Origin: an uncultured Planctomycetales bacterium
Lineage (GTDB): Bacteria > Omnitrophota > Gorgyraeia > Gygaellales > Profunditerraquicolaceae
Assembly (NCBI GenBank): GCA_964542785.1
Contig: CAZIUK010000003.1
Location: forward strand, 12,946 to 76,945
Direction of reading: 5' to 3'
DNA length: 64,000 nucleotides
Shown here: positions 29,260-61,599 of the stretch, in pieces
How the letters are laid out: each line of letters opens with the position of its first letter
Position numbering within the stretch: position 1 is the stretch's first letter
Translations under genes and position numbers: made by a program
Notes under the pieces: model-generated
The model's input: only the letters and a program-made list of their open reading frames with translations
Databases searched by the model: none
Told to the model about the DNA's origin: nothing

Positions 29260-29307
29260 TTGACAAAAACCCCATTCTTTTATATCATTTGATATAGAGT
29301 TATATCA
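29260..29307 (+). promoter_or_regulatory. Promoter TTGACA, 17-bp spacer, TATCAT, followed by a perfect inverted repeat TGATATA-gagt-TATATCA (candidate operator)
   Basis: Read directly upstream of the MerR-like gene. Confidence 0.35.
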
Positions 29308-29358
29308 AGTGCTATAACTTACCATATATCTATAATCCTTTTAACAGAGGAGACTCAA

Positions 29359-29586
29359 ATGGCCGAATCCTTAATTTCTCCCGCTGAAATAACTAAAATT
29401 CATAGCATATCTTATCAGACGGTTAACTACTATACTAACCTTGGGCTCTTAAAAGTCAAAAAGAGAGAGGCTAATAATCGTCTTTACAGCTCCAAGGAAG
29501 TCAGTTCTAGCTTAAAGAAGGTCTCTGAGCTTAAGAGCCGGGGGTATTCATTAAAGCTTATATGTGATTTATTAAGAAAGGGCTGA
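29359..29586 (+). CDS. Small MerR-type HTH protein
   Basis: IHSISYQTVNYYTNLGLL resembles a MerR N-terminal HTH; 75 aa. Confidence 0.45.
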   Translation: MAESLISPAEITKIHSISYQTVNYYTNLGLLKVKKREANNRLYSSKEVSSSLKKVSELKSRGYSLKLICDLLRKG

Positions 29587-29590
29587 TGGG

Positions 29591-30415
29591 ATGAGCTATT
29601 ATTCCGCGCTGGGGTTAAAAAAGGAACCTTTTTCTAATAGCCCTGACCCCGATTTTTTCTTTGAATCCAATGAACATAAAGCTGCCCTTACCAGGCTTTT
29701 GATTGAAATACGTCTGCGTAGAGGCTTAAGCGTTATTTTAGGTGATGTAGGAGTCGGCAAGACTACTCTTTCCCGTAAACTTTTTCAAATGCTAAAAGAG
29801 CGTTTGGATATACTCTTCTTTATGGTCTTGGATCCAACCGCTGAAAGCGCAGAGTTATTCTTAGAGTCGTTAGTGCGTACCTTTAACCTGCAGGATGATA
29901 TCGGTGATTCTCCGACAATACTTGATTATAAAGAGGTTATTAAAAAATTTCTCTTTCAGAAGGGGGTGGAGGAGAATAAAACTATAGTTTTAGTTGTTGA
30001 TGAAGCTCAAAAGCTTAACCCCTTGTCTTTAGAGATCTTACGCGTCTTATTAAATTATGAAACTAATGATTTTAAGCTTTTGCAGTTAGTCTTATTGGGG
30101 CAGTTGGAGCTCTTGTCTAGAATAAAAGAGATTAAGAATTTTTATGACCGTATAGTCCTTAAATATGTAATAAACCCTTTAGATGAATTAGCGACAAGGG
30201 ATTTAATTGATTTTCGTTTGAAGCATTCTGGTTTTGATTCTGAACTAAAACTTTTTACAGAGGAAGCAGTTAGCGAGGTTTACCGTTATAGCCAAGGTTA
30301 TCCGCGCAGGATTAATTTAATTTGCCATAATTCATTAAGAAATTTTTTGATGAGCAAAAAAACTTTAATTGATGCAGATATAATTAGAGAAGCAATAACT
30401 AAAAGCGCCTTATAG
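29591..30415 (+). CDS. ExeA/GspA/MshM-like AAA ATPase associated with secretin assembly
   Basis: Walker A GDVGVGKTT; Walker B VVDEAQ; ExeA-family N-terminus MSYYSALGLKKEPF. Confidence 0.75.
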   Translation: MSYYSALGLKKEPFSNSPDPDFFFESNEHKAALTRLLIEIRLRRGLSVILGDVGVGKTTLSRKLFQMLKERLDILFFMVLDPTAESAELFLESLVRTFNLQDDIGDSPTILDYKEVIKKFLFQKGVEENKTIVLVVDEAQKLNPLSLEILRVLLNYETNDFKLLQLVLLGQLELLSRIKEIKNFYDRIVLKYVINPLDELATRDLIDFRLKHSGFDSELKLFTEEAVSEVYRYSQGYPRRINLICHNSLRNFLMSKKTLIDADIIREAITKSAL

Positions 30416-30417
30416 TT

Positions 30418-31077
30418 ATGGATAAACAGAGCTCTGACGAAAGACTCCTTAAGCTTATAGAAGGTCAATATAATACCACTACCTTAAAAGGACAGCAAAT
30501 CCCATTTCCCAAAGGACAGAAGCCCGCTATAGAGAAAATAGAGAGAAAATTTAACCTCAATAAATTATTATCTCAAATTAAGGAGCTAAAAATTGATTTA
30601 GTTTATATTAACAAAGGATTAATTTTAGCAGCTGTTTTTTTAGTTTTAGTTTTTTTATTTACTATCTTTACTCCTCCTGGGACTTCTCTTTTAAGCCTTG
30701 AGACTTTTAATAACGCTAGCTCTCGGCAGATAGAGCAGCTAATTAATATGGGGCAAAAGCAGGCGAGTTTGCGTAAATCTGCCTCCTTTAAGGATATAAA
30801 AAGGAATATATTTCTTCCTTTTAGCGCTCCTCAGGGTTTATTAAACCTACAGCAAGCTACAGAATTATCGGAAGAGATAAAAGCGTTAAAATTGGTGGGT
30901 ATTATTTGGTCGGCTGATCCTGAGGTTATGATTGAGAATGCAAAAGACACAAGGACTTATATACTTAAAAAAGGAGATACTTTTAATGAATCTTATAAGG
31001 TAAAAAATATAACACGCAATTCAGTAACCTTGCAGGTATCTACCCAAGATGGCCTAAAGGATTATGAGCTAAGATGA
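30418..31077 (+). CDS. Bitopic membrane protein, possible GspB/GspC/PilP-like secretin partner
   Basis: Single TM helix; C-terminal beta-rich segment; sits between the ExeA-like and secretin genes. Confidence 0.35.
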   Translation: MDKQSSDERLLKLIEGQYNTTTLKGQQIPFPKGQKPAIEKIERKFNLNKLLSQIKELKIDLVYINKGLILAAVFLVLVFLFTIFTPPGTSLLSLETFNNASSRQIEQLINMGQKQASLRKSASFKDIKRNIFLPFSAPQGLLNLQQATELSEEIKALKLVGIIWSADPEVMIENAKDTRTYILKKGDTFNESYKVKNITRNSVTLQVSTQDGLKDYELR

Positions 31078-32609
31078 GGATTTTATTTTATTTTTTCTTA
31101 TATTTATCTTTATTTTTATTTTATCCCGGGTTAATTTTATCAGGAGAGGAAGGTACGCAGGTAAGCGCAGTTAAGGAGGTTAAGTTAGACGGGGTAAATG
31201 ATGATAGTCAAGAGAGTATTGATAAGATTTCTTTGGATCTGAAAGGGGTTGATATCAATGAGCTTTTTAAGATAATTTCTGCAAAATCCGGAATCACCAT
31301 AGTTACCTCTCCTGAAGTAAGGGGCCGGGTTTCGGTTTTTATTGATAATTTAAGTTTTGATGATGCGTTAGACGTAATCGTGACCTTACAGGATCTTGCT
31401 TACGAGAAGAAGGGGAACGTAGTAAAGGTGATGACTATGGTAGAGTATGAGCGGGCCTATGGGAAAAAATTCGGGGAGAGGAAAGAGACCCGTACTATAC
31501 GGCTTACTTATGCTAAGCCTTCTAATGTCGTCAATGCAATTACCTCCTTAAAGTCTGACCTTGGCAAGATTATTGCCGATGAATCTACCGGGACTATTAT
31601 TATAACCGATACTCCGCAATCTTTAAGTGTCATTTTAGAAGCTATTAAAGAATTAGACCGTCCTTTAGAAACTTTAGTAATTGATATTAATTATGCGCGT
31701 TTTGGGGATATAAAAAATTACCTGAATGAATTAATTACCCCCGGGGTAGGGCAGATTATCTCTGATGATAGAAGCGGTAAAGTGGTGGTTTATGATTTTC
31801 CTCAAAGGTTGGCGCGCATTAAAAACCTTTTGCAGGAATTAGACGAACAGTCCCGTCAGGTGCTTATTACTGGAGAGATTATTGAAGTAGAGATAGGCGA
31901 TAAATTTCAAAGCGGTATTGAGTGGGAAAAAATATTTAAGTCTGTGCATATGGATAATTTGGATTTAGTAGCGAAATTTCCAGTTACCCCGGCTTTGGCT
32001 AATTACGGTAAAATTAGCATAGGAACCTTGACACAGGACCATTATAATATAATAATTAATATGATTAATGAATATGGAAAGACTAAGATACTTAACCGCC
32101 CTAGGATTGTGGCGGTTAATAAAGAAGAGGCTAGGATTCTTGTCGGGACTCGCGAGGCCTATGTTACCTCTAGCCAAAGCCAAAGCGAAACTTCTGTAGT
32201 TACCGCAGAGAACATCAACTTTGTAGATGTCGGGCTTAAGCTGGTGGTTATTCCTACTATTGGCTCTGACGGTTTTATTACTATGAAAATAAAGCCTGAA
32301 ATCAGCACAGTAAAGGAGTATTTAGATACTGAGGCAGGTGGCCGTGTGCCGATAGTTAAAACTGCTGAATCGGAGACTGTGGTTAAGGTAAAAGACGGAA
32401 ATATGTTAGTTATAGCAGGGTTGATGATAGATAGTGATTTAAAAGAGGCTAAGGGGCTGCCTGATTTGTCTAAGTTGCCTATTTTAGGCCATTTATTTTC
32501 TACGAAGACAAAGGAAAAGACAAAATCAGAAATAGTTATTTTTATAACGCCAACAATTATAAGCGGCACTAGTGATTTTGGGCGCGAGGAGAGAAATGCA
32601 ATCAGGTAA
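31074..32609 (+). CDS. Secretin (T2SS/T4P GspD/PilQ/MshL family)
   Basis: Signal peptide; N-terminal secretin-N domains; C-terminal secretin core ending LPILGHLFSTKTKEKTKSEIVIFITPTII. Confidence 0.85.
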   Translation: MRILFYFFLYLSLFLFYPGLILSGEEGTQVSAVKEVKLDGVNDDSQESIDKISLDLKGVDINELFKIISAKSGITIVTSPEVRGRVSVFIDNLSFDDALDVIVTLQDLAYEKKGNVVKVMTMVEYERAYGKKFGERKETRTIRLTYAKPSNVVNAITSLKSDLGKIIADESTGTIIITDTPQSLSVILEAIKELDRPLETLVIDINYARFGDIKNYLNELITPGVGQIISDDRSGKVVVYDFPQRLARIKNLLQELDEQSRQVLITGEIIEVEIGDKFQSGIEWEKIFKSVHMDNLDLVAKFPVTPALANYGKISIGTLTQDHYNIIINMINEYGKTKILNRPRIVAVNKEEARILVGTREAYVTSSQSQSETSVVTAENINFVDVGLKLVVIPTIGSDGFITMKIKPEISTVKEYLDTEAGGRVPIVKTAESETVVKVKDGNMLVIAGLMIDSDLKEAKGLPDLSKLPILGHLFSTKTKEKTKSEIVIFITPTIISGTSDFGREERNAIR

Positions 32610-32628
32610 TATTATAAATGGTATAAAA

Positions 32629-32666
32629 GGGGACAGCGACTTTTTTATCAAAAAGTCGCTGTCCCT
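32629..32666. repeat. REP-like palindromic element GGGGACAGCGAC-T6atcA5-GTCGCTGTCCCT
   Basis: Exact family members also at 36657, 36819-36872, 38526, 53391-53449, 55076, 55700 and 59281-59340. Confidence 0.85.
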
Positions 32667-32670
32667 ATTT

Positions 32671-34611
32671 ATGAAATGGGGTATCTGCCTATTTTTATTA
32701 TTTTTGCTGATAGCGCCTTTAGGGGCTTTTATTTTTGCGCAAGGCGATATTGATTATGATGAACAGATAGATAAGATTTCTTTAGATTTAAAGAATGTTG
32801 AAATTGTAGAGCTTCTGCGCATACTTTCTCTTAAGACAAAAAAGACAATTGTCCCCAGCAAAGATATCTCAGGGCGCGTTACTATTTACCTTAATAACGT
32901 CTCTTTTAATGACGTTTTAGATATAGTCCTTTTAACTCAAGGCCTGGCTTTAAACAAAAAAGATAATATTTATTATGTTATGAGCGAAGCTGAATTTAAA
33001 AAAATTTTCGGCCGGGATTACATTGACAATAGAAAGGTAGAGACGGTAAAGCTTGCTTATGCTAAGCCCTCGGTAGTTTTTAATGCCTTAGGCCAGTTAA
33101 AATCAGATCTGGGGAAATTAGTCGTAGATGAATCAAGCGGGACGGTTATTCTTATAGATATTCCCGAAAAACTTTCTCTGATGAAAAAGATGATAAATGA
33201 AATGGACCAGCCATTGACAACCAAGGTCTACAACCTTAACTACATTAAAGCTGCTGATGCTAAAACTCAAATAACTGCCGCTATTACGCAAGGCACAGGA
33301 GAGGTTATAGTAGATGAAAGAAGCAGTAAAGCTATTGTTTCAGATTTATCTAAGAAAATGGATAAGATAGGTATGCTTGTACGCGAGATAGACGAAGAAT
33401 CGCGCCAGGTTTATGTGGAGGCTGATATTGTAGAGCTTAGTTTAAGCGATAAGTTTGAGCGCGGCATAGATTGGGAGAAGGTTTATACCTCTGCGGCTAT
33501 GGATGGATTAACCTTTGCCGGTTATTTCCCTGCTACATTAGCGCAGTTTCAAAAAATATCCGTTGGCACTTTAGCCGTGGATCACTACAAGGCCATATTA
33601 AATTTTCTTAACACTTACGGCAAGACGAATATCATCTCTCAGCCTAGGATAGCAGTTGTTAATAATGAAGAGGCAAATATTATGATTGGCGTGCGTGAGG
33701 CTTATATAACACAGACGCAGAGTCAGGCTACTTCCACTACGGTTACTTCGGAAACGGTAGAGTTTATTGATGTTGGCGTTAAGCTTAAAATATCCCCAAG
33801 GATAGGCTCTGATGGTTTTATCACTATGAAACTTAAACCTGAGGTAAGCTCTGTAAAGGAGACAGTAGAGACTTCTTTAGGCAGCCGTATTCCGATAGTC
33901 CAGACTTCTGAGTCAGAGACGACGGTAAAGGTTAAGGATGGGACGATGATTATGATTGCCGGGATGACTAAGATTGAAAATGTAGATGCGATTAAGGGTT
34001 GGCCAGTGCTTTCTAAAATTCCCTTTCTTGATATATTCTTTGGCAATCGTACCAGCGAGAAAAAGAGAACAGAGGTTATAGTCTTTTTGACTCCGAGAAT
34101 AATGCGCAGTGATGAAGGCTTAAGAGGATTAGAGATTGCTAAGATTCTCCCTAAGGAATATCTGCCTGAGAAGCTGCAGGTTAAGATAGACAGGGACCAG
34201 AAGATAGATGACGCTTTGTTTGAGACTGAGGAGAATCCGCAGGAATTACTTACGGCGCGCGATTATTATTTTAAGGGGTTAGAGTCGCAGGCATCTTTGG
34301 ATAATAAAGAGGCCATACGTTATTTTAAGAAGGCTATAGAGTTAGATAGTAAATATGCCGCGGCTTATAACAATTTAGGAATTGCTTATGAGAAGGAGTT
34401 TATGCCGGAAAAAGCAGAAGAGGCGTATCTTCAGGTTATATCTATGGACCCTTCTTTTGTCTCTGCTTATTCTAATTTAGCCTTACTTAATGAAGACCGG
34501 CTTGATTATGCCCGGGCGCTTATTTATTGGAGAAAACGAGTCCTTTACGGAGACCCTAATGATGAGTGGACTAAACAGGCTGTTCAAAGGGTTAAGGAGC
34601 TTAGCCGTTAA
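32671..34611 (+). CDS. Second secretin paralog with a C-terminal TPR extension (secretin fused to a pilotin/MshN-like TPR domain)
   Basis: Likely start MKWGICLFLLF (signal peptide), just after the REP element. Secretin core IPFLDIFFGNRTSEKKRTEVIVFLTP. C-terminal TPR repeats (AIRYFKKAIELDSKYAAAYNNLGIAY...). Confidence 0.8.
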   Translation: MKWGICLFLLFLLIAPLGAFIFAQGDIDYDEQIDKISLDLKNVEIVELLRILSLKTKKTIVPSKDISGRVTIYLNNVSFNDVLDIVLLTQGLALNKKDNIYYVMSEAEFKKIFGRDYIDNRKVETVKLAYAKPSVVFNALGQLKSDLGKLVVDESSGTVILIDIPEKLSLMKKMINEMDQPLTTKVYNLNYIKAADAKTQITAAITQGTGEVIVDERSSKAIVSDLSKKMDKIGMLVREIDEESRQVYVEADIVELSLSDKFERGIDWEKVYTSAAMDGLTFAGYFPATLAQFQKISVGTLAVDHYKAILNFLNTYGKTNIISQPRIAVVNNEEANIMIGVREAYITQTQSQATSTTVTSETVEFIDVGVKLKISPRIGSDGFITMKLKPEVSSVKETVETSLGSRIPIVQTSESETTVKVKDGTMIMIAGMTKIENVDAIKGWPVLSKIPFLDIFFGNRTSEKKRTEVIVFLTPRIMRSDEGLRGLEIAKILPKEYLPEKLQVKIDRDQKIDDALFETEENPQELLTARDYYFKGLESQASLDNKEAIRYFKKAIELDSKYAAAYNNLGIAYEKEFMPEKAEEAYLQVISMDPSFVSAYSNLALLNEDRLDYARALIYWRKRVLYGDPNDEWTKQAVQRVKELSR

Positions 34612-35965
34612 CTTAAAACCAAAGAAGAGCTTTTTTCAGGAGAAACTCCTCCTCTTTTCTTTTTTCATCCTTATTTTTAGCACCTTTCTTATAGGATCTG
34701 TTGGTATATCCAAAATATATTGGTTTAATGCTAAAGTTAAAGATTTAGCCCAACATAACCTTAAATTAGAGTCCGCAGTTCTTGAGATGAGGATAAGGAA
34801 TGCTAATTTTGCGATGGGGGTGCGTAACTATGTTTTTTGGCGCGCTTCACGCTACTTGCAGTCTGTATCCATTGCCGGAGACTTAGATAAGATTTTTATT
34901 TCGGTAGAAGATTTTGAAGAGCATCTTAAAGCGTATCGCCAGAGTTCTTATCTAAAGGAGCAGAGGGATTGGGCAGATGAAGTAGCTTTAGCTTTTGATG
35001 GGGTTGTCCAGCAAGGCAAGAGGCTTGTTGAGCTGCTTGGAAAAGAAGAACCGGGAAAGATAAGCGAGCTTATAAACAGCCAGTTGATGAGCTTTGAGAA
35101 TAATGTTTACCGAATTGATGAATTTTTAGATAAGGCGATGGGCAAGTCTAATCTTGCTGAGGTAGAGCGCCAGATGCTTATTACAGCTCAGGATAAGGAG
35201 CAGGCTATTAGTTTTTTGAAGGTAAGCCTTATTGTATCTATTCTTATGGGGTTAGTTATTGCGTCTGTGGTATATCGCAGGATAGTCCGGGAAAAAGCTT
35301 ACCGCCAGAAACTCTTTGACCGGATTGTAAATCTTGAGGAGGACGAGCGTAAGAAGCTCTCTACCGCGGTTCATGATGAGATGGGCCAAGACTTAAGCGC
35401 CCTTAAGATTTATTTAGGGTTAATTTCTCAAGAGCTGCCGGATATAGCTGAAGATACTAAGAAAAAGCTTGATGAGTGCAAAAAGATCGCTTCCGGGCTT
35501 ATCGAGAAGAGCCATAATATTTCTTTTCTTCTCAGGCCCCCGGAGTTAGACGAGGTAGGGCTTTTAGAGAGCATAGAATCGCTTCTTCTTGAGGCTAAAC
35601 ATTTAACGGGGATAGAGTATTCATTTCAGAAGCCTAAGCTTTTGCTGGATTGTTCGGCAGAGAGGAGTCTTTTGCTTTACCGCGCCTCTCAGGAACTTTT
35701 AACCAATATGATAAAATATGCAAAGGCAAAAAATGTGGTTTTACGTTTAAATAGGATCGGTGATTCCGCTCAGCTTTTTTATTATGATGATGGTTGCGGG
35801 TTTGATCTTGCAAAGTTAAAGTATAAATTATTGCGCCGCAGAGAGGATAAGTTTGGCTTGGGGTTATTGGGCCTGAAAGAAAGGGTGGAGCTTTTAGGCG
35901 GGGATATAAAGATAAATTCGTCTTTGGGGGGAGGCACGACTATTATAGTCAATTTGCCGCTTTAA
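34559..35965 (+). CDS. Sensor histidine kinase (HisKA_3 / NarX-DegS type)
   Basis: Two TM helices around a ~190-aa periplasmic domain; H-box AVHDEMGQDLSALKIYL; HATPase_c G-boxes. The only in-frame start codons (34490, 34508, 34559, 34562) overlap the 3' end of the secretin-TPR gene, so the start is uncertain. Confidence 0.75.
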   Translation: MMSGLNRLFKGLRSLAVNLKPKKSFFQEKLLLFSFFILIFSTFLIGSVGISKIYWFNAKVKDLAQHNLKLESAVLEMRIRNANFAMGVRNYVFWRASRYLQSVSIAGDLDKIFISVEDFEEHLKAYRQSSYLKEQRDWADEVALAFDGVVQQGKRLVELLGKEEPGKISELINSQLMSFENNVYRIDEFLDKAMGKSNLAEVERQMLITAQDKEQAISFLKVSLIVSILMGLVIASVVYRRIVREKAYRQKLFDRIVNLEEDERKKLSTAVHDEMGQDLSALKIYLGLISQELPDIAEDTKKKLDECKKIASGLIEKSHNISFLLRPPELDEVGLLESIESLLLEAKHLTGIEYSFQKPKLLLDCSAERSLLLYRASQELLTNMIKYAKAKNVVLRLNRIGDSAQLFYYDDGCGFDLAKLKYKLLRRREDKFGLGLLGLKERVELLGGDIKINSSLGGGTTIIVNLPL

Positions 35966-35967
35966 TC

Positions 35968-36609
35968 ATGCCTATAAGAGTCGCTATAGTCGATGACCAC
36001 GATATAATCCGTTTGGGGATAAAGAGTGTCTTAGAGAAAATCACAGATTATGAAATTTGCGCTGAAGGAGAGAATGGCGAAGAAGCCTTAAAGATCGCGC
36101 AAAGCTTATCTCCGGATATTATGTTGTTAGATATAACTATGCCTAAGCTTGGAGGGCTTGATATTATTTCCAGGATAAAACGTGCCAGTCCTAAAACCCG
36201 CATTGTGATTATTTCGGTGCATAAATTAGGGGCGTATGTTTTAAAGGCCTTAAGGCAAGGAGTAAGCGGGTATCTTAATAAGGAGAATGTTGCAGAAGAA
36301 CTACTTCTAGCACTTTCAAGCGTATCTAAGGGTAAGGTTTATTTTGGTCAAGAGATATCTCAGTATCTTGCAGAGACTGTTAAAAACCCGGACCAAAAAC
36401 CCTTGTCTCACAGCCTTCTGAGTGAAAAGGAATTGGATATTCTGCGTTTGGTAGTTGAAGGGAAGACAGCAAAAGAGATAGCAGAGGTTACTTTTCTAAG
36501 CCATCGGACAGTTGAAAATTATAAGAATAGTATTATGAAAAAGCTTAATTTACACAAGACAAGTGATTTGATTAAGTACTCATTAGAGAACAAAATACTT
36601 GATATTTGA
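35968..36609 (+). CDS. NarL/FixJ-family response regulator (receiver plus LuxR-type HTH)
   Basis: Receiver motifs (DDHD...LLDITMPK); C-terminal LuxR HTH LSEKELDILRLVVEGKTAKEIAEVTFLSHRTVENY. Confidence 0.9.
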   Translation: MPIRVAIVDDHDIIRLGIKSVLEKITDYEICAEGENGEEALKIAQSLSPDIMLLDITMPKLGGLDIISRIKRASPKTRIVIISVHKLGAYVLKALRQGVSGYLNKENVAEELLLALSSVSKGKVYFGQEISQYLAETVKNPDQKPLSHSLLSEKELDILRLVVEGKTAKEIAEVTFLSHRTVENYKNSIMKKLNLHKTSDLIKYSLENKILDI

Positions 36610-39379: not shown

Positions 39380-40987
39380 ATGAGAAAGAAGTTATTAGTC
39401 TTCTGGGTTTTATTTTTTGCTTTAGTATTTTTAAAGAGTACCTTTGCCAATAATATAACTGTAAGCAACCTTTCGCTGGATAACCTGGATTCAGCTTCAG
39501 GCACAGTTGAGATAAAGTTTGATTTAGATTGGGAGAATAGTTTTTCCCCGGAACAAGACCCTGATGCTACAACATTTGACGCAGCGTGGGTATTTGTTAA
39601 GTTTTACAGCGGAGATCCTAAGAAGTGGCATCATGCGCGGCTAAGCGAAGGCGGGACCTTCCAGTTGTATAGCACGGAGACAAAATTAGGGATTACCGAG
39701 GATAGAGTAGGTGTTTTTTGCCGCCCGGGAAACAACCAAACCCTTATCTGGAACTATCGTGATGCAGGAGTCAGCTTGGAAGAGGAGGATATAAAGATTA
39801 AGGTCTTTGCCATTGAGATGGTATATATACCAGAGGGAGAGTTTTATATAGGTTCCGGTATGCTAGAAGCTTATTCGTTTTATGACGCCTCTGATCCTAC
39901 TCGGAGTCAGCCTATTAAAATTACTGCCTCTTCTCCCTGGCTCTCTGATAGGGCTAATGGCGCTGAAGGCACAGGAATACCAGGAGATATAGCGTTTAAT
40001 AAGACTACCAGTCCTGGCTATGGTAATCTGCCAGTAGTAAGAACCCAATTAAACCCTAACTATCCTACAGGATACAAGGGGTTTTATATCGCAAAGTATC
40101 CGATCTCTCAGGGTCAATACAGGGATTTTTTAAATACCCTGACTAGGGAAGAGCAGCATAGGCTGGTTGGGAAAACTATAAGTGACACTAACGCATCTTT
40201 CTCACTTCCTGACAATATCCCTCCAGGAACAACAGAGGTAACTAATGTATATGTAATGGAGAATTCTCCCGCCTTAACTAGGCGTGTTTCAATAAGATGC
40301 GATAGCCAGATAGATGCGTATGCTCCGGTAACTTTTTACTGCGACTTAAATGGAAACGGTATTCCTAATGAAGAAGATGATGGAGAGTGGCTCCCGATGA
40401 GTGACATCTGGTGGCACTTTAACGGAGCATTCTGTGATTGGGCAGGGTTGCGGCCTATAACTGAATTAGAATATGAAAAAGCCTGCCGCGGTCCAGTTTA
40501 TCCTGTCCCAGGGGAATTGGCTCATGGGCTTTCTAACGTTAATTATCTTTCGGTTTCCGCTGCCCAGGTAGGTAACCCCGGGCGAATTGATGAGTATGCA
40601 ACTAATAACGGGAACTTTCGTTGGATATATGGTACCTCGTGGATAATGCGGGTAGGTTTTGCCGCGACCCCTAATTCTACCAGGGAATCAGCAATTTCTT
40701 CTTATTATGGGGTAATGGATATGACATCCCAGGTTAGTACTCCTGTTGTAAGTGTAGTTGCTCTTACTTTTGACGGACAACATGGAGATGGAGAGTTAGA
40801 CGCGTCAGTAAACACAGTGCATAATGTGCCTAACTGGCCTACAGATCATGCAGGCTGGCGCTCCGGTGACAGGAATTATGTGAGTGCGGTTTCGTACCGT
40901 TATTCTGATAGCAATCTGGATCCTTTAGTATGGAAAAAGAATCGTACTGGAAATAGCAGTATACGTCCTTGCCGGACTGCTTATTAG
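39380..40987 (+). CDS. Secreted FGE-sulfatase (SUMF1/formylglycine-generating-enzyme) domain protein
   Basis: Signal peptide; GFYIAKYPISQGQYRDFLNTL and a C-terminal Trp/Gly-rich region typical of the FGE-sulfatase fold; 535 aa. Confidence 0.55.
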   Translation: MRKKLLVFWVLFFALVFLKSTFANNITVSNLSLDNLDSASGTVEIKFDLDWENSFSPEQDPDATTFDAAWVFVKFYSGDPKKWHHARLSEGGTFQLYSTETKLGITEDRVGVFCRPGNNQTLIWNYRDAGVSLEEEDIKIKVFAIEMVYIPEGEFYIGSGMLEAYSFYDASDPTRSQPIKITASSPWLSDRANGAEGTGIPGDIAFNKTTSPGYGNLPVVRTQLNPNYPTGYKGFYIAKYPISQGQYRDFLNTLTREEQHRLVGKTISDTNASFSLPDNIPPGTTEVTNVYVMENSPALTRRVSIRCDSQIDAYAPVTFYCDLNGNGIPNEEDDGEWLPMSDIWWHFNGAFCDWAGLRPITELEYEKACRGPVYPVPGELAHGLSNVNYLSVSAAQVGNPGRIDEYATNNGNFRWIYGTSWIMRVGFAATPNSTRESAISSYYGVMDMTSQVSTPVVSVVALTFDGQHGDGELDASVNTVHNVPNWPTDHAGWRSGDRNYVSAVSYRYSDSNLDPLVWKKNRTGNSSIRPCRTAY

Positions 40988-41036
40988 GAAGTTAACAGGT
41001 TTTTGTAGGATTAAAGAGGATTTAAAAGAGGGAAAG

Positions 41037-43922
41037 ATGGAAAAGAAAGAGAGAATAAACATAATAATTTCAGTAATTCTTATTCTTACGGCAGCATCCC
41101 TGTTTTTTCCGCTTTCTTCTGCCTTTGCCGGCCAATTTACCGGAGGTATCGGCGACGGAGATGCTTGTGCAGAGGTCTCTCTCTCCTCTCTGGCTACGGT
41201 TCCAGAAGTAGTTTCAAAGATTATCCGGGCAGGGGAGGAGATATTATCTATCAGCCGCTTAAATAACAAAGTTACCGTTGTCTTGACTAACCCCTACCCT
41301 AATAATAACCTTAAACCCGGCCAGTATATTGTGATTTATACCGGGATCTCTGGGACTCCTTCTTTTAACGGCAGATTCTTAATTGATAGCGTCTTAAGCC
41401 AAAGCGAGTTTACCTATCAGCAGGGAGGCAGTAATGAGTCAGGGTCTATAGGAAGCTTTAGTTTTGCCGGAGGAGATTTTAGTACCCTTACTAGCTGGGA
41501 GGCTGATTTACCGTATGATTTAGCCAGTACAGGCACGCCGCATATCGCCGTATGTTATAATGATTGGGTATCAGGGCTTAAAGATAACCTTGTGGTTGAA
41601 GGACATACAACCACCCCTAAATATTATATAAAAATTACTCCTTTTAGGCTTGACCGAAATACTGGGAAACCAAAGTCAGGCTTTTTTATTGCTCCTTCAA
41701 GCGGAAATGCAATAATCCTCCAGGATAATGCTGATTTGGTGCTTGATAGTATTGAAGCTACTGCTCCGGTAGTGATCAATGCCGGAGTAGCCCGGGTTGA
41801 TGATCGTTCCATCTATTCAAAGTTAGAGGTAGGTAGCGGCGCGACCTTGGCTCTTAGCGGGGCGAATTTTGGTAATTTAAAAGAGATGGTTATAAACGCA
41901 GGTTCAACCCTTGAATATCTTGACGGTGATTCTTCTTCTTTAGACAACCCAATAGCCTTGCTTAACCAGGATCACCATCATCTTAAGCTTTCTAAGGGGT
42001 TTTTTAAGTTACCGGCAGATAATTTTACTATTATGGGTAATATTGATATCGGATCACAGGCAAGCTTGGATGCGACAGAAAATAATTATAATATCAAAGT
42101 TGCAGGAGATTGGTTCTGTTTGGGGAATTTTAATTCGCGCGTGGCAGGAGTGGAATTTAACGGAACTAACCAAAAGATATCCGGGTCAACTTCTTTCTTT
42201 AATTTTAGAAAAGATAACTCAGGCCCTGGTACCTTAATCTTGACCTTTGAAAGCGCATCTCTTCAGACTGTCAAAGGCAGGCTTGACTTAGGAAGAGGAA
42301 GCAGGGAAAATTTTTTAAAGTTGCGCAGCAGCCAGGAGGGGAGTCAGTGGGAGCTTGACCTTCAGGGAGATAGCTTAGCCGGGTTTGTAAATGTAAAGGA
42401 TTCTGATGCTTCCAGGGGAAATAAGGTTTATGCTACAGCTTCTTTGGATTCCGGGAATAATGATAATTGGGAGTTTAACAGCGCTGAAGGAGGGCCTATC
42501 CAGTCTGTGAGCGTTTCTCCTTCAAGCGGGTATCGAAAGATCGGAGAGAGTGTAGGGTTTACAATTAAAATCAAGCCGCAATATTCTAACAGCACTCTTT
42601 TGTATTATGAATCTTATTTTGGAAACCATTTAATTGAGCTAACCAGGGAAGAAGACGGTATAACTTTTAATGGTTCCTATATAGTTAAAGAGGGTGATCC
42701 TGATATAGCTGATCCTTCTTTGTCAGGCAGGCTTGAGATTATGCCTTTTGGGGGAGCTACATCTCTTTTTAGCGCGATTTTATCTAAAACCACTCTGTAT
42801 ATAGATGCTAATAAGCCGGTAGTAAGTAGTGGAAACATCTTAGTTACCACTAGTCCTGATAATGGTGAATTTTATCGCGCTGGCGAAGATATTACTCTTA
42901 CCTGGGATAATTCTGCTTCTGGAGACGGGAGCCATAATCCGGATATTGCCCTAGTTACCGCTGATTTTTCAGCTTTAGGCGGAAGTTCTGCTGTAGAGAT
43001 GTCAGAGAGCGAAGGTATTTATACCGCAAGCTATACAGTTTCTGCTGAGAGTATAAATGGTACCCATGATATCTTAGTTACTGTTACGGATAAGGCCGGC
43101 AACCAGACCTCTCTTGCCGCCCCTACAAAGGTAAGAGTTGTCTCTGGCTCTCTTACGCTTACCAGCCCCACTACCCCGGTAAGCTATGTTGCCGGAACAA
43201 CCCAGAAGATAACCTGGAATGCTTCTGGAGATATAAGTACGGTAAATTTAAAATATTCCATTGATTCAGGACAAAGTTATAAGACCATTAACACTGTAGG
43301 GTCTTTGACCGGGGGGAATACTTGTGACTGGGTAGTTCCTAGCGATATAACTTCTAAGGCCCGGGTTAAGGTTGAGGATACTGCCATTAAGCAGGTTTAT
43401 AGCGCCTCAAGCGTAGATTTTAGCATTGTTTATCCTTCTGTTACTATTACCAGTCCTAATGGAGGGGAGTCTTGGACAGCAGGCTCTAAACAGAATATTA
43501 CTTGGACAACGAATTCACCTTTAGTGACTCATCTTAAACTTGAATATTCTGTTGATGGAGGATCAAGCTGGAATTTAATTGCCGCAGCAGTTCCTAATAC
43601 AGGATCATATTTATGGAAACTGGATAACCTTTTTGCTGTAGATACTGTTAGGGTAAGGGCGACAGGCTTAGCCCGTAATCAAATGTTAACTTTAGGCGGA
43701 AGCGCTATGGACAAAGTTTCTTCTGGCGCTTGGCTGGAGGATAACTATAAGGTTTTAGCCATAGAGGTCTTAAGTGATTTTAACGCAGGAGACACTCTGC
43801 TGATATCTGGTCTAAAGTTCGGTAATTTTATTGTCTCTCCTGCGAATAACCTGAAGTTAAGCGCTGGAAGTAATTCTGTTATAGATGATAAGAAGATTAC
43901 AGTTATAGCGCCTTCTGTTTAG
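41037..43922 (+). CDS. Large (961 aa) secreted/anchored protein, probably beta-rich surface protein
   Basis: N-terminal TM/signal; Ser/Thr/Gly/Asn-rich composition typical of Ig-like or beta-helix surface proteins; no catalytic motif found. Confidence 0.45.
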   Translation: MEKKERINIIISVILILTAASLFFPLSSAFAGQFTGGIGDGDACAEVSLSSLATVPEVVSKIIRAGEEILSISRLNNKVTVVLTNPYPNNNLKPGQYIVIYTGISGTPSFNGRFLIDSVLSQSEFTYQQGGSNESGSIGSFSFAGGDFSTLTSWEADLPYDLASTGTPHIAVCYNDWVSGLKDNLVVEGHTTTPKYYIKITPFRLDRNTGKPKSGFFIAPSSGNAIILQDNADLVLDSIEATAPVVINAGVARVDDRSIYSKLEVGSGATLALSGANFGNLKEMVINAGSTLEYLDGDSSSLDNPIALLNQDHHHLKLSKGFFKLPADNFTIMGNIDIGSQASLDATENNYNIKVAGDWFCLGNFNSRVAGVEFNGTNQKISGSTSFFNFRKDNSGPGTLILTFESASLQTVKGRLDLGRGSRENFLKLRSSQEGSQWELDLQGDSLAGFVNVKDSDASRGNKVYATASLDSGNNDNWEFNSAEGGPIQSVSVSPSSGYRKIGESVGFTIKIKPQYSNSTLLYYESYFGNHLIELTREEDGITFNGSYIVKEGDPDIADPSLSGRLEIMPFGGATSLFSAILSKTTLYIDANKPVVSSGNILVTTSPDNGEFYRAGEDITLTWDNSASGDGSHNPDIALVTADFSALGGSSAVEMSESEGIYTASYTVSAESINGTHDILVTVTDKAGNQTSLAAPTKVRVVSGSLTLTSPTTPVSYVAGTTQKITWNASGDISTVNLKYSIDSGQSYKTINTVGSLTGGNTCDWVVPSDITSKARVKVEDTAIKQVYSASSVDFSIVYPSVTITSPNGGESWTAGSKQNITWTTNSPLVTHLKLEYSVDGGSSWNLIAAAVPNTGSYLWKLDNLFAVDTVRVRATGLARNQMLTLGGSAMDKVSSGAWLEDNYKVLAIEVLSDFNAGDTLLISGLKFGNFIVSPANNLKLSAGSNSVIDDKKITVIAPSV

Positions 43923-44022
43923 CAAGGCGGATTTGGGGATAGTTTTGTTTAGGTAAGGGGATTATAGAGGTTTTAAGATAAGAGTAGTTAGAGATGGTTA
44001 GAAGATGTGGGGTGAATAGATT

Positions 44023-47000
44023 ATGAAGAAAATACTCAAGGTATTATTAATAGGCGGGTTAGCGCTCTGGGGTTATTTTGAATCCGCATCCTTGGCTTTA
44101 GGAGCTAATCTTTCTATCTCAAGCGCGTCTGATCAGACCTTTATCTCTGAGGAAGCGCCTAAGGATGCGCAGGCTATAACCATTACTGATGTATCTGGAT
44201 CCGGCATAATCGTTTCAAGCGGGTTGAGGATACTTATCCCGGATTCTTTCGGGATGCAGTGGCATGGGGCTATGCTTAGGGATGATAGCGTGACTGATAC
44301 CTCTAACGCTGATTTTAGTGTTATTGCCGCGCAGATAATCTCTGCCGGGGTAACCTTGGAAAGTTCAGATGCCGGAGCAACCGGGAGCGTGGAGGTTAAT
44401 TTTACCAGTATAAACTCTATACCTGCTGATGCAAAGATAGTGATTACATTCCCGGATAATTTTGTTTTTAATTCTAAAAGCCCAACTCTTGCTTCTTCTG
44501 CCACAATGAGCGGGGATTTTAGTGTTAGTATTACTGGGCAGGTTATAACAGTTACCCGCAACTCAACTTCGGCTTCTTCTGCTGGAAGCCACTTAATTAC
44601 CTTAACTAATATTAAGAATCCGATTAGGCCGGGAACAACTGGGGCATATTCATTGAAGATCCAGACTCTGGCGGGGTTTGATATTGATGTGAATAATGAT
44701 TTAGCCGCTTCCACGATTGTCCCTGCGGCAACTTCCCGTATAACTTTAAATTCTCCGGATGATATGACTGCAGGCGCAGCGCGCGCAGCCTACACCTTAA
44801 CCCGTTATGATGAGTACGGTAATTTAAGTACACAAGAGGAAGAAGTCTTTGACATTTCAACTACCTCTACCGGGGATAATGCTGTTTTCTACAATGATGC
44901 TACTGCAAGCGAAGCCGGGAATATCATTACCAGTATCACTATCCCCCAGGGTTCTTCTTCGGTTAACTTCTGGTATGACGATACCAAGATGGGGGCGTAT
45001 ACAATTGCGGCTATTAAATCAGATCAGCCTGAGATTACCGTTTCTGATGGTATAAATGTAAAGCATGCTGAACCGGATCATTTAAGGTTTGTTTCTGATA
45101 TACCTACTGCGGATGCCAAGCAGGTCTCTGTGCAGTTTAACCTGCCTCAGCTTGCTGCTGTTGACCGTTATGATAATATACTTACTAATGACTACGGAGC
45201 TGCTGCTTATTCCGGGAATAAGGCTATAACCTATTCCTTAAGCGGTCAAAGAGACGCTCCCGACGGAAATGGGACAGATCTTTTTTATTCCGACAATGTA
45301 GCTTCGGCGAAGGTAAATTTTACTAACGGCCTCTCAACAAATGCCCTTAGCGCTAAGTTATACCGGGCGCAGAATACGGTTATATCCCCGGCGGATAGTA
45401 ATCTTCCCAGCGAGAGTCTTCCTTCTAACGAGATTATTGTTAACCCGGCTACAGCGACAAAACTGGTCTTTAAACAGCAGCCTTCTGGCAGTGCGATAGT
45501 CAACTCTGCCTTTTTACAACAGCCGGTAGTAGCTATCCAGGATCATTACGGCAACCAGACTTTGGATATATTCCCGATAAAGCTCTATGATTCTATCCGT
45601 TCGGAATTTCCTTATGCCGATGCTCCTGGAATTTTAACTTCTGACCACGAGGATAATACATTAAATGCCGTTGCAGGCGAGGCGTCTTTTAGCGGGGTTG
45701 AATATAATGCCTCAGGTGTAATATACCTGTATGCCCAAGGATTAGGCGCAGGCAGCAATGTTAACCCTGTTTTTTCAAATGAGATAACCCTGGCTACTTC
45801 CGTCACAACCATGGTTAAGGCCGCGGATACTCCTGTAGCTGACTTTAACCTAACTCCTACCAACGATACATTGGAAAAGAAGTTTAAGGTTTTAAAGTTT
45901 AAGGTAACTGATGCCGGAGAAGATAAGACTCCTACATTGATCGATCAGATTAAAATAGCAGTATCCGGCACCGGGGGTCATGCTTCTACAGATATTGCCT
46001 GGGCAGGTTTATATGTAGGAGAAGAAAAGGTGGCGGATGCTGCTTCTATAACAGATGACTTTATTACTTTTGGGCAGGAGCCTAACAGCGATTCTACTGC
46101 AGGTATCTACAGCGTGCCTGATAGTAGCTCTGTTGAATTTACCGTGTATATCCATATGAAGCCGGATAAGTTATCCGCCCTTGACGGCCAGTCGTATATC
46201 TTTACTACTGATGAAGATAGGGTAGGGGTTGACAGAGGGGCTTCTTCGCAAATGACGGCAAGCTCAGGCAGTATAGCCGCTGTTACCGGAACTATTAAAG
46301 TTGATATGACGCATCTTGAGATTGTAACTGAAGAAGGAGCCTCAACATTAACTGTCTCTGCTGGGGTGCCGGTAGAGCTGTTGGTGCGCGCTACCGACGC
46401 TAATAAGAACATAGATAGCGATTATAATGGTAGCCATACCTTAGTCTTCTCAGGGTTAAATAGTGTTGGTACCCTTTACCCAAAGATAGAGAGTGTCCTT
46501 TTTGGCTATAATATAACTATTTCTTTTTCAGGAGGTATTTCTGCTTCTCAAGGAGTTACCCTTACTCCTTATAAGAGCGAGGAAGGTATAATCGTTGTCC
46601 AGGAATCAGGAAAGTCTTACAGTCAGCATGGATTAACTGCCACGATTGTCCCTGCGGCGACTTCCCGTATAACTTTAAATTCTCCGGATGATATGACTGC
46701 AGGCGCAGCGCGCGCAGCCTACACCTTAACCCGTTATGATGAGTACGGTAATTTAAGTACACAAGAGGAAGAAGTCTTTGACATTTCAACTACCTCTACC
46801 GGGGATAATGCTGTTTTCTACAATGATGCTACTGCAAGCGAAGCCGGGAATATCATTACCAGTATCACTATCCCCCAGGGTTCTTCTTCGGTTAACTTCT
46901 GGTATGACGATACCAAGATGGGGGCGTATACAATTGCGGCTATTAAATCAGATCAGCCTGAGATTACCGTTTCTGATGGTATAAATGTAAAGCATGCTGA

Positions 47001-55735: not shown

Positions 55736-56614
55736 ATGCATAAAGATGTAGATATTTTAGTTATCAAAGGAGAAGAAAAAGCCACAGGGTTGATTGAATC
55801 TACGGTTCGTTCTGCAGGCTACAATGTTTGGTTGGCCAATGATCATAATGAAGGCTTGAAGCTTTTGCGTTCTAATACTTTCCCGATAGTAATTACAGAA
55901 GTACTTTCTGTAAAGATGGATGTTGCTCACTTTTGTAGAGAGGTCAACAAACTAAGCCCGTTGACTAACGTGATTGTTGTTGCCCTCTATTCTTTAATTA
56001 ATAACGCTATTAAGGCTATGGAGGCAGGGGCTTACGGGTATATTACTAAGCCACTAAATGTTTCTGAAATACGTATAGTCGTGGAGAGGGCAGTAGAGAG
56101 GTACTTTCTGTTTTCTGCCAGGGAAGATAAGGATTATTTTGTTGATTTAGCTGTAAGGGATGGGCTTACCGGACTTTTTAATCGGCGCTATTTTAATGAA
56201 TTAATAAAAATAGAGTTTAGCCGCATTAAGCGGTTACCGTCGTTTCTCTCTCTGCTAATTCTTGACATAGATAATTTTAAAAACTATAATGATACGCAAG
56301 GACATAGCGCAGGCGACATTTTATTAAAGAATGCCGCTAAAATTTTTAAGAGTTCTGTGCGTACCGTAGATATAGTTTTTCGCTATGGGGGAGAGGAGTT
56401 TGCAGTAATACTTCCTAGTACAGATAAAAAAGGGGCTCAGATTATTGCAGAGAGGATACGTATGCAGGTGAGCCTGTATCTACCTACTACTGTAAGTATA
56501 GGCATTTCTACTGCCCCAGAAGATGCCGAGGAGATAAGCCTATTGATAGAGAAGGCGGATAAGGCTTTGTATCAAGCGAAGAACAGTGGTAAAAATAAGT
56601 GGTGTGTTGCATGA
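55736..56614 (+). CDS. Response-regulator receiver plus GGDEF diguanylate cyclase
   Basis: GGEEF active site (RYGGEEFAVIL); RxxD-like I-site context; N-terminal receiver-like domain. The 3' end overlaps the atpC start by 16 nt. Confidence 0.85.
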   Translation: MHKDVDILVIKGEEKATGLIESTVRSAGYNVWLANDHNEGLKLLRSNTFPIVITEVLSVKMDVAHFCREVNKLSPLTNVIVVALYSLINNAIKAMEAGAYGYITKPLNVSEIRIVVERAVERYFLFSAREDKDYFVDLAVRDGLTGLFNRRYFNELIKIEFSRIKRLPSFLSLLILDIDNFKNYNDTQGHSAGDILLKNAAKIFKSSVRTVDIVFRYGGEEFAVILPSTDKKGAQIIAERIRMQVSLYLPTTVSIGISTAPEDAEEISLLIEKADKALYQAKNSGKNKWCVA

Positions 56615-57774: not shown

Positions 57775-57778
57775 GCTT

Positions 57779-59251: not shown

Positions 59252-59263
59252 ATGGGATAAATG

Positions 59264-59340
59264 AAATGGGGGACGAAATGGGGGACAGCGACTTTTTTCT
59301 AAAAAAAGTCGCTGTCCTCCCATAAAGTCGCTGTCCCTCC
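59264..59340. repeat. Compound REP element (GGGGACAGCGAC-T6ctA7-GTCGCTGTCCtCC-cataaa-GTCGCTGTCCCtCC) inside the atp cluster
   Basis: Family match with degenerate right arms; preceded by the partial direct repeat aaatggggga. Confidence 0.8.
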
Positions 59341-59349
59341 CATTAAAAG

Positions 59350-60192: not shown

Positions 60193-61599
<1,407 letters not shown>

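Follow-up and report, generated by a model that had tools for sequence, protein, structure and literature searches.

A conserved tandem secretin cassette in Candidatus Omnitrophota, probably the outer-membrane module of a split type II secretion system

We analysed a 64-kb window, that is the whole stretch of DNA under study, from a metagenome-assembled genome (MAG) of Candidatus Omnitrophota, in which all genes lie on the plus strand. Positions 29359-34611 of this window carry a cassette of five genes in the order MerR-family regulator, AAA+ ATPase, bitopic protein with a periplasmic homology-region (HR) domain, secretin 1 (Sec1) and secretin 2 (Sec2), the last of which ends in tetratricopeptide repeats (TPRs). 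We consider it likely that this cassette serves a type II secretion system (T2SS) as its outer-membrane module and that in this lineage the system is split into two operons. It is a known type of outer-membrane module with an unusual make-up and is kept over a large part of a poorly known phylum. The genome is known from these 64 kb only, and gene content past base 64000 was read from relatives. An earlier note, made from the sequence alone, had let the interval of interest begin at 29591; the five-gene cassette proved real, with the conserved MerR gene (29359-29586) lying just before that start. The coordinates of all features are collected in Table 1.

The tandem secretins and their partner genes

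A family scan of the GTDB species representatives with the bitopic-protein family as query yielded 31 loci, which were annotated against the window proteins together with contigs found through the secretin; individual loci are denoted here by L numbers. The order of the five genes is kept in about 28 Omnitrophota species representatives. Sec2 is present on every contig that reaches past Sec1, and the MerR gene lies directly 5' of the ATPase gene in most related loci whose contig extends that far. All of the nearest proteins carry the label Candidatus Omnitrophota or Omnitrophica. The genes on the 3' side of the cassette are in most loci those of a HisKA_3 kinase, a LuxR regulator and a DUF2341 protein, after which comes a gene for a protein of 3.5 to 6.2 thousand residues. 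Two full copies of the cassette, from MerR through DUF2341, were noted in one genome on two contigs (L031 and L033, both JBDRLC01). A further locus from an unclassified MAG (L034, JAZDLJ010000142.1, positions 1301-6961) has an ATPase, an HR protein and two secretins. These secretins are 36-46% identical to the window pair and cluster together outside the Sec1 and Sec2 clades described below; judged by the tree they may represent either an independent tandem duplication or a deeper one.

Sec1 and Sec2 match the Pfam family Secretin (PF00263) with 146.5 and 146.2 bits, respectively, at a cut-off of 27.5 bits. Each contains Secretin_N twice above the cut-off, the STN/N0 scores were at or slightly under the cut-offs, and the N-terminus of both proteins is hydrophobic. 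AMIN domains were not found in the Pfam scan of the secretins. The two proteins align colinearly over 453 residues with 48% identity and 2 gaps (E = 3e-157). In the AlphaFold2 model of Sec2 (numbering of the 646-aa form) an N0 domain (35-113) is followed by two ring domains (122-178 and 182-241) and the secretin domain (245-479); past the barrel there are two short helices (487-516), a linker and the TPR domain (529-645). The top fold match of Sec2 was PulD (6hcg_A), and the best-scoring solved secretin was PilQ of Myxococcus xanthus. Secretins build gated 12-15-mer pores in the outer membrane, and Sec1 and Sec2 would be expected to do the same.

In a neighbour-joining tree of 58 secretin cores and outgroups the orthologues of Sec1 and Sec2 fall into two sister clades of 28 leaves each with mirrored internal topology, and the tree thus traces the pair to one old duplication that was retained. 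The Omnitrophota loci with a single secretin, L089 and L090, branch outside both clades, and the L034 pair branches just outside them. Throughout the related loci the first secretin was always nearer to Sec1 (51-91% identity) and the second nearer to Sec2 (59-96%), at a cross-identity of about 43-54%. The two complete secretins lying back to back, as described in the earlier note, are therefore true tandem paralogs.

Computed against two close relatives, the ratio of nonsynonymous to synonymous substitution rates (dN/dS) was 0.06-0.12 for Sec1, 0.05-0.07 for the Sec2 core and 0.11-0.13 for the Sec2 tail. With values of 0.05-0.13, both secretins and the TPR tail are therefore under purifying selection. 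This bears on the idea that either Sec1 or Sec2 has no function of its own and is a redundant or decaying copy. Tandem duplicates do often decay, and Sec1 evolves slightly faster than Sec2 (mean distance 0.47 versus 0.42). However, dN/dS for the secretins is 0.05-0.12, both copies are intact in all examined loci except L017 (Sec1 split across two open reading frames, ORFs), the two clades persist down to about 51-59% identity to the window copies, and the second cassette copy in the genome with L031 and L033 retains both genes. We therefore regard a decaying copy as scarcely credible.

The pairwise distances of Sec1 and Sec2 correlate with r = 0.954 over 18 genomes, and with a partial r of 0.743 when ATPase, HR protein, kinase and regulator are controlled for; both values are the highest among 15 gene pairs. 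The HR protein tracks Sec1 and Sec2 alike (r = 0.90 each). This rate covariation is compatible with co-assembly of the two secretins and gives a weak hint of it. Alternatively, Sec1 and Sec2 could be two separate homomeric channels with different jobs, co-transcribed for convenience, with Sec1 for instance serving the T2SS and Sec2 with its TPR serving another filament system or the export or holding of giant proteins. As a known rule, secretin paralogues within a single cell serve distinct functions, M. xanthus having three (PMC12475490), the extra domain is found only on Sec2, and strong hairpins of several kinds between the genes could set unequal expression. On the other hand, the two genes are strictly adjacent with overlapping stop and start codons in every lineage of the about 28 species, and a single HR protein and a single ATPase are present for two secretins. 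Two channels also fit poorly with the equal covariation of the HR protein with both, the strongest covariation being that between Sec1 and Sec2, and with a colinearity that reaches from N0 to the end of the barrel and leaves no mark of a different partner on either protein. Two independent channels are a possibility that we take seriously and yet lean against.

The TPR domain of Sec2 is preceded by a linker of about 45 aa, so that the whole C-terminal extension comprises about 165 aa. Pfam matches above the cut-offs were TPR_1 (43.9 bits), TPR_11 (43.6 bits), TPR_2 (37.1 bits), TPR_17 and TPR_8. TPR consensus residues, YWRKRVLYGDPND among them, are kept in 39 orthologues, the length of the linker varies greatly, and the orthologous proteins range from 657 to 1119 aa. 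The secretin-TPR architecture is common to more than 100 clusters at 90% identity, and the tail was found in 24 of the annotated loci. The fusion reported in the earlier note is thus upheld by Pfam, by the AlphaFold2 fold and by its spread. That the TPR region is a mis-called separate ORF was ruled out, since fusion is the rule. The apparent split ORF in L013/L087 is explained by one in-frame TAG in the Lys/Glu-rich linker (around 5600-5610), which separates the Sec2 core from the TPR tail and may reflect an error of sequencing, a true nonsense mutation or read-through.

The same note had called the tail pilotin-like. Its TPR fold stands, but the likeness to pilotins is an analogy by position only, as the Tgl model reached 29.4 bits at a cut-off of 225 and PilW 25.5 bits at a cut-off of 154, both being generic TPR matches on the Sec2 tail, and a lipobox was not apparent in the N-termini of Sec1 and Sec2 when these were read by eye, no predictor having been run. 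The best solved-structure matches of the TPR domain were generic as well (designed CTPR proteins and OGT). A profile of the Sec2 TPR tail was run on the 150 nearest 50%-identity cluster representatives, out of 1.8 billion representatives searched. It matched 8 of the 150 secretins, all of them of the Sec2 type; unrelated TPRs would escape this profile. The nearest secretins with a source name were again from Omnitrophica. Pfam found no TPR on the 10 longest other secretin relatives, two of which carry TonB_C at the same C-terminal position, and the extensions of the rest contain no recognised domain. TonB_C in the position of the Sec2 TPR was also observed on the single secretin of other Omnitrophota (L089, positions 9001-11229; proteins P0294 and P0333), and other long secretin relatives have C-terminal extensions of 200-290 aa without a recognised domain.

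The secretin genes had further been described as separated only by a repetitive extragenic palindromic (REP) element. The REP-like palindrome itself is genuine. It lies between the Sec1 stop codon (32607-32609) and the core of the Sec2 signal peptide and folds as RNA with -32.6 kcal/mol (z = -7.5). Its arm occurs 14 times in the window, compared with 0.03 occurrences expected. ORF 55297-55650 (117 aa) has no Pfam match of its own and is 43% identical over 58 aa (E = 4e-15) to the C-terminal half of a PF01797 protein in L002. It is flanked by REP arms at 55077(+) and 55700(-) and is probably, by this homology, the remnant of a Y1/IS200-like REP-associated tyrosine transposase (RAYT) with its REPs. 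REP element is a fair name because the arms are repeated and flank a probable transposase remnant. The separation of the two genes is less certain, as the start of Sec2 is ambiguous. The ATG at 32596 comes with a GAGGAG Shine-Dalgarno sequence, agrees with the JGI gene call and produces an overlap of 14 nt with Sec1, as is also found in relatives; with this start the REP would lie inside the coding region. The ATG at 32671 lies 3' of the REP and matches the 'MK..' N-terminus of orthologues, with no Shine-Dalgarno sequence.

The Sec1/Sec2 junction was observed to be a hot spot of palindromic insertions (window 32596-32770 and the junctions of L002-L088). A minimal junction of 80-113 nt is present in about 10 of 27 loci, and at least 13 of the 27 have 50-220 extra nt with long inverted repeats. 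These belong to at least three families, GGGACAGCGAC..., GGGAC(C)GTTTCTATTTTT and GTCATTGCGAGG. In 26 of 27 loci the Sec2 frame can be followed upstream to the Sec1 stop without interruption, so that the insertions keep the reading frame and introduce no stop codon. The REP as a strain-specific trait was ruled out, since related and unrelated palindromes occur at the same junction in other lineages. The 3' REP arm AAAAAGTCGCTGTCCC (32650-32665) encodes KKSLSL(F) just before the Sec2 signal peptide, and the same arm at 36856-36871 encodes KKVAVP, the start of the signal peptide of the DUF2341 protein. REP arms thus seem to supply or overlap N-terminal signal-peptide codons.

Two genes upstream of the secretins complete the picture. 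The ATPase had been called ExeA/MshM-like, which holds both for its AAA_22 domain (65 bits) and for its best NCBIfam match, TIGR03015 (ExeA-related; XrtA/PEP-CTERM-associated), which at 172.3 bits stays below the cut-off of 324.5. The protein has no transmembrane segment (maximum hydropathy 1.09), no peptidoglycan-binding domain and no Pfam domain besides AAA_22; its size is MshM-like. It is 68-98% identical to the ATPases of the Omnitrophota cassette loci and 47% identical to that of the unclassified L034, with a dN/dS of 0.03-0.04. No sequence relative of it was found among solved structures.

The bitopic protein of the window has no Pfam or NCBIfam match. Its HR domain (aa 157-218) was modelled by AlphaFold2 from 36 family members with pLDDT 87-96, and the top four Foldseek matches were M. 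xanthus PilP (3jc8_Pa), GspC-HR of enterotoxigenic Escherichia coli (ETEC; 3oss_C), Legionella LspC (7oio) and Pseudomonas aeruginosa PilP (2y4y). The TMt was 0.70 with a root-mean-square deviation of 2.8 Å for 3oss_C and 0.66 for 2y4y. The family profile matches 3oss_C weakly (E = 0.06), and the most distant members of the family carry PF11356 (T2SSC). In the solved complexes 3OSS and 6HCG this HR fold binds the N0 domain of the secretin. The family comprises 116 clusters, and all members with a source name are labelled Omnitrophica or Omnitrophota. No PDZ or coiled-coil domain follows the HR domain; the protein ends at residue 219. At the other end, the cytoplasmic N-terminal peptide MDKQ(T/S)SDERLLKLIEG is nearly invariant in the family. 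The motif occurs together with the ATPase in the window, in L089 (a related motif) and, loosely, in L034; the GspC-like protein of L090 is without the peptide, and L090 is without the ATPase. Since the peptide accompanies the ATPase, these very few cases suggest by analogy that it may be the docking site of the soluble ATPase.

The distant GspE/GspF operon and the machine served by the cassette

A GspE-type ATPase and the platform protein GspF are encoded 27 kb downstream of the cassette, in an operon that continues the ATP synthase genes. GspE scored 559 bits with TIGR02533 and 558 bits with TIGR02538, both below the cut-offs; for the two proteins the best models were GspE (or PilB) and GspF, below the equivalog cut-offs. 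The atp-gspE junction is also present in L037, L039-41, L044, L049 and L088 and is kept down to about 48% GspE identity. In L088 the alpha and gamma genes were observed to be missing between b/delta and beta. No prepilin was detected in any of the six frames of the window by a strict motif scan, in agreement with the absence of pilins stated earlier. No prepilin peptidase was noticed among the window genes; L089 has a Peptidase_A24 gene close to the system.

The relative L037, whose GspE is 84% identical, continues where the window ends. Its operon reads atpG-atpD-GspE-GspF-PilM/PilN fusion-GspM/PilO-like-GspG-two N-methyl pseudopilins-GspK-like, followed by MreB, MreC, MreD and PBP2, and contains no secretin. 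GspG reached 129 bits at a cut-off of 88.85 and the Pfam family T2SSK (GspK) 27 bits at a cut-off of 24.2; GspG and GspK are also found in L040, L041, L089 and L090. The secretin-less atp-gsp operon recurs at 44-50% GspE identity in L039-41, L044 and L049, and several loci with a GspE of 41-45% identity have a secretin inside the gsp cluster. By comparison with L037 the L/M-like and pseudopilin genes are most probably to be found immediately beyond the end of the window.

Both modules are joined physically in three Omnitrophota loci. In L088 a gap of 432 bp separates the cassette from the divergently oriented atpFH-atpD-GspE-GspF. L089 carries one string, GspF-GspG-..-GspK-PilMN-PilO/GspM-MerR-ATPase-bitopic-secretin::TonB_C, and L090 a contiguous canonical operon GspE..GspM-GspC-like-secretin. 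These three loci, together with the L037 operon, lead us to read the cassette as a T2SS outer-membrane module, and from gene order the distant GspE/GspF pair is very probably its cognate partner. The proposal in the earlier note of an MshE-like, c-di-GMP-binding GspE together with GspF as partner is supported by this linkage and by the NF053729 score above its cut-off. Its statement that the window has no GspC-M genes applies to the pseudopilin genes, but not to GspC, as the bitopic protein has the GspC/PilP HR fold.

The cassette could also be the secretin module of an adhesive type IV pilus, like the mannose-sensitive haemagglutinin (MSHA) pilus or the type IVa pilus (T4aP), rather than of a protein-secreting T2SS. 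The ATPase would then be MshM, the HR protein MshK/PilP, the secretins MshL/PilQ and the TPR MshN/PilF. The MSHA secretin block of Vibrio cholerae is MshK-MshL-MshM-MshN, and the M-K-L-N content of the cassette parallels this msh locus; an HR-type protein, a secretin, a short ExeA-like ATPase, a TPR protein and an MshEN assembly ATPase are all present. PilQ was the top NCBIfam model for both secretins and PilQ of M. xanthus the best-scoring solved secretin, the top fold match of the HR protein was PilP, GspE carries an MshEN domain, and the platform accessory proteins match PilM, PilN and PilO models. In addition, TadD and MshN were reported to be homologous TPR proteins (PMC6668835). The content thus bears out the MSHA likeness seen in the earlier note. 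The window differs in its order, M-K-L-L'::N, in having the TPR on the second secretin and in its linked pilins, which are of the GspG/GspK type. In L037 the linked major pilin lies above the GspG cut-off and the GspK-like protein has T2SSK and HHH domains, the MshL equivalog cut-off was missed, and no PilT-like ATPase was among the genes identified beside GspE in the examined gsp loci, no search aimed at PilT having been made. Moreover, T2SS and MSH are sister groups, and the distinction is partly semantic (PMC6668835). The pilin set of the linked operon in relatives leads us to assign the window system to the T2SS rather than to an MSHA pilus, and we consider a pilus module quite improbable.

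The match of the ATPase to TIGR03015 raises another alternative, namely a role of the cassette in polymer export (exopolysaccharide or slime) or in a system of the PEP-CTERM/exosortase type. A part in slime secretion has been ascribed to PilQ/GspD secretins, and TPR proteins accompany several polysaccharide exporters (PMC12475490). However, TIGR03015 scored 172 bits at a cut-off of 324.5, no exosortase or Wza/Wzc-type exporter was present in the subset of window ORFs scanned with Pfam, the four C-termini inspected have no PEP-CTERM-like tail, and in L089 and L090 the cassette is joined to gspF-gspM genes. Polymer export therefore appears very improbable.

Several points weigh against the cassette being a T2SS outer-membrane module with the make-up described. 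The secretins missed the cut-offs of all three specific models, namely GspD TIGR02517 (cut-off 351.35; Sec1 223, Sec2 202 bits), PilQ TIGR02515 (cut-off 284.35; 227 and 208 bits, marginally the highest model) and MshL TIGR02519 (cut-off 250.2; 173 and 164 bits). The pseudopilin genes are read from a relative, and the window itself shows none. A second, secretin-less type IV filament system, or a full T2SS with its own secretin, may be present outside the 64 kb. L088 has a disordered tail in place of the TPR, and in L034 a same-clade comparison gave no match to the TPR tail; because of these two loci the TPR is taken not to be essential to the secretin pair. A rate correlation as found for Sec1 and Sec2 is expected for same-fold paralogues even without contact. 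In L023 the kinase, regulator and DUF2341 genes are missing downstream, and we infer the cargo role of the neighbouring proteins, discussed below, from adjacency alone.

Comparison with known systems and a possible mechanism

Compared with the T2SS outer-membrane complex (PulD-PulC-PulS, 6HCG; ETEC GspC-GspD, 3OSS), the cassette has the same N0, ring domains and secretin barrel, the same bitopic inner-membrane protein with an HR domain of GspC fold, and linked GspE, F, L/M-like, G and K genes. It differs in having two paralogous secretins instead of one, in lacking a recognised S-domain and a separate lipoprotein pilotin while possessing a fused TPR, in the absence of a PDZ or coiled-coil domain after the HR domain of the GspC-like protein, and in its division between two operons that lie 27 kb from each other and of which one is joined to ATP synthase genes. 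Furthermore, canonical GspD has the domains N1-N3 (PMC8134430), whereas the window secretins have two ring domains after N0.

With regard to the upstream genes, the cassette resembles the GspA-GspB system in that the ATPase gene adjoins the bitopic gene directly 5' of the secretin. GspA-GspB (ExeA-ExeB of Aeromonas; OutB in Dickeya) is a pair for secretin assembly that consists of an AAA_22 ATPase and a bitopic partner with an HR-like domain. ExeA differs in having a transmembrane segment and a periplasmic peptidoglycan-binding domain, whereas the window ATPase is soluble and 274 aa long.

For the TPR domain, pilotins or accessory proteins with TPRs are known from T4aP (PilF/PilW/Tgl), from the Tad system (TadD) and from a rhizobial type III secretion system (T3SS; Y4yS; PMC4311626, PMC10499894). 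As in the cassette, a small TPR module is there genetically tied to a secretin. These are separate proteins, however, and PilF/PilW/Tgl/TadD are outer-membrane lipoproteins, whereas the Sec2 TPR is a C-terminal domain on a variable linker. Because TPR and secretin are fused in most lineages, a direct functional link between them is suggested.

In two further systems a pair of secretin-derived products occurs together and has been proposed to form one pore. In the mitochondrial T2SS these are GspD and GspDL (PMC8134430). GspDL is a divergent paralogue of the C-domain only, while Sec1 and Sec2 are both full-length, colinear and in tandem. RhcC1 and RhcC2 are two halves of one secretin and differ in this from the full-length paralogues of the cassette. 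In Mesorhizobium this split secretin has the TPR partner Y4yS (PMC4311626).

For Omnitrophota, West-Roberts et al. 2023 (bioRxiv 10.1101/2023.11.21.568195) describe a T2SS/Tad-like locus of more than 10 genes upstream of giant genes, which includes gspD, gspE, gspF, rcpC and a rotamase gene, and report PilZ, solute-binding-protein and glycoside-hydrolase genes downstream of the giant genes. The phylum is the same, secretion genes lie beside very large proteins in both cases, and the window has PilZ, solute-binding and glycosidase genes at 3589-11643. That text, figures aside, differs in containing no tandem secretins, TPR fusion, ATPase-HR pair or kinase-LuxR-DUF2341 block. The text of a 2026 preprint has the same association of secretion locus and giant genes and likewise no tandem secretins, TPR fusion or cassette. 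Our search of the literature on Omnitrophota/Omnitrophica secretins, secretin-pilotin-TPR fusions and heteromeric secretins found no description of the cassette, and the literature on DUF2341 yielded nothing useful.

Secretins have, to our knowledge, been treated as homo-oligomers that are helped by separate pilotins. That a clade of an uncultured phylum retains two full-length secretin paralogues, one of them with a TPR domain, and a sister lineage has TonB_C in the same place, provides a natural case in which to test if a secretin pore can be heteromeric and what pilotin-type modules do. The cassette also gives the secretin-less gsp operon on the ATP synthase genes of Omnitrophota an outer-membrane partner, and its link to a two-component pair and very large exported proteins bears on the predatory or host-dependent lifestyle proposed for Omnitrophota.

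The system may be pictured as follows. A first operon comprises the MerR regulator, the cytoplasmic AAA+ ATPase, the HR-domain protein and the two secretins, followed by the two-component pair and large Sec-exported proteins. A second, appended to the ATP synthase genes, contributes GspE and GspF and, judged by close relatives, would continue with a PilM-PilN (GspL-like) fusion, GspM, GspG, minor pseudopilins and GspK. The periplasmic HR domain would dock on the N0 domain of each secretin, in the manner of GspC on GspD and of PilP on PilQ, and the invariant N-terminal peptide of the bitopic protein would recruit the soluble ATPase, with the two acting like GspA-GspB (ExeA-ExeB) in the assembly or placement of the secretins. 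We infer for the second secretin and its TPR that both secretins would be needed in one machine, most simply as a hetero-oligomeric mixed ring, and that the TPR, on its linker of variable length at the periplasmic outside of the barrel, would replace a separate TPR pilotin or accessory protein. Alternatively, the TPR could anchor or dock the channel, as TonB_C at the same place may do in the sister lineage. The DUF2341 protein and its neighbours of several thousand residues would be cargo or surface products that are co-regulated via the kinase/LuxR pair.

A bolder version of this model, which we offer as speculation and think unlikely as a whole, would make Sec1 and Sec2 the first known hetero-oligomeric bacterial secretin, with a periplasmic TPR skirt on spacers of variable length. 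It would be specialised to export or hold the neighbouring giant fibrous proteins (DUF2341, Ig-like, beta-propeller) for host attachment by ultra-small, possibly predatory or epibiotic Omnitrophota, and the junction palindromes would tune the stoichiometry of the two secretins.

Further genes of the window

The DUF2341, FGE-sulfatase-like, Ig-like and 3115-aa products encoded after the two-component pair all have Sec signal peptides, and the proteins encoded at 39380..53370 occupy the slot of the 3.5 to 6.2 thousand-residue proteins in related loci. The DUF2341 protein is a candidate cargo or surface protein. A longer ORF call for it opens, over 36768-36848, with a stretch of eight Asn codons together with a REP arm; translation probably starts at the ATG at 36849.

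Table 1. Position of the cassette and of other features in the 64-kb window.
Feature	Position	Strand	Basis and remarks
Sigma-70-like promoter candidate TTGACA-17-TATCAT	29260..29288	+	11/12 matches, weak evidence; in the gap 5' of the MerR gene
MerR-family helix-turn-helix protein, 75 aa, first cassette gene	29359..29586	+	MerR_1 37 bits, cut-off 21.6
Soluble AAA+ ATPase of ExeA/GspA/MshM type, 274 aa	29591..30415	+	AAA_22 65 bits, cut-off 27
Bitopic GspC/PilP-like protein, 219 aa	30418..31077	+	One transmembrane segment (aa 67-85); periplasmic HR beta-domain (aa 157-218)
Sec1, 511 aa	31074-32609	+	Signal peptide, N0/STN, two Secretin_N, secretin domain; no C-terminal extension
Sec2::TPR, 671 aa (ATG 32596) or 646 aa (ATG 32671)	32596..34611	+	Domains of Sec1 and a C-terminal TPR
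REP-like perfect palindrome, 16-bp arms, 4-nt loop	32630..32665	.	GGGACAGCGACTTTTT-tatc-AAAAAGTCGCTGTCCC, Sec1/Sec2 junction
Sec2 TPR domain, residues 529-646, 8 helices, about 3.5 repeats	34255..34608	+	Pfam and AlphaFold2 (pLDDT about 90)
HisKA_3/HATPase_c sensor kinase	34559..35965	+	Conserved directly after Sec2; start from JGI gene call on L036
NarL/LuxR-type response regulator, partner of the kinase	35968..36609	+	Response_reg 91.6 bits, GerE 62.9 bits; synteny
DUF2341 protein, 856 aa	36849..39338	+	DUF2341 80 bits; Sec signal peptide MIKKVAVPILVACFFVVAAQA; conserved after the two-component pair
FGE-sulfatase-like (535 aa), Ig-like (961 aa) and 3115-aa proteins	39380..53370	+	Sec signals; 3115-aa protein without Pfam match
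Response-regulator/GGDEF diguanylate cyclase	55736..56614	+	GGDEF 154.8 bits; 5' of the atp-gsp operon
ATP synthase b/delta, alpha, gamma, beta	57061..61599	+	Run straight into gspE, 2 nt between atpD stop and gspE start
GspE-type assembly ATPase with MshEN c-di-GMP-binding N-terminus	61602..63227	+	NF053729 53 bits, cut-off 38; PF05157, PF00437
GspF platform protein, cut by the window end	63228..64000	+	TIGR02120 165.7 bits over the first 243 residues

The diguanylate cyclase is a possible source of the cyclic diguanylate (c-di-GMP) sensed by GspE. Two PilZ proteins are encoded at 3589-4633, and the GGDEF cyclase (55736-56614), the PilZ proteins and the MshEN domain of GspE together suggest control of the system by c-di-GMP.

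An Rfam scan of 28000-37000 gave no match at the gathering score, and promoter and terminator scans gave counts within chance (promoter-like sites not above the shuffle mean). At the 5' end of the window (1-11643) the first ORF is open and has a Peptidase_M54 match; it is followed by the two PilZ proteins, a solute-binding protein, two ABC permeases, an MFS transporter and a GH2-like protein. Since giant genes of Omnitrophota have been described with this pattern on their 3' side, the start of the window may lie in the tail of such a gene. Finally, the large subunit of ribonucleotide reductase (19404-23003) contains an intein with a LAGLIDADG endonuclease domain.

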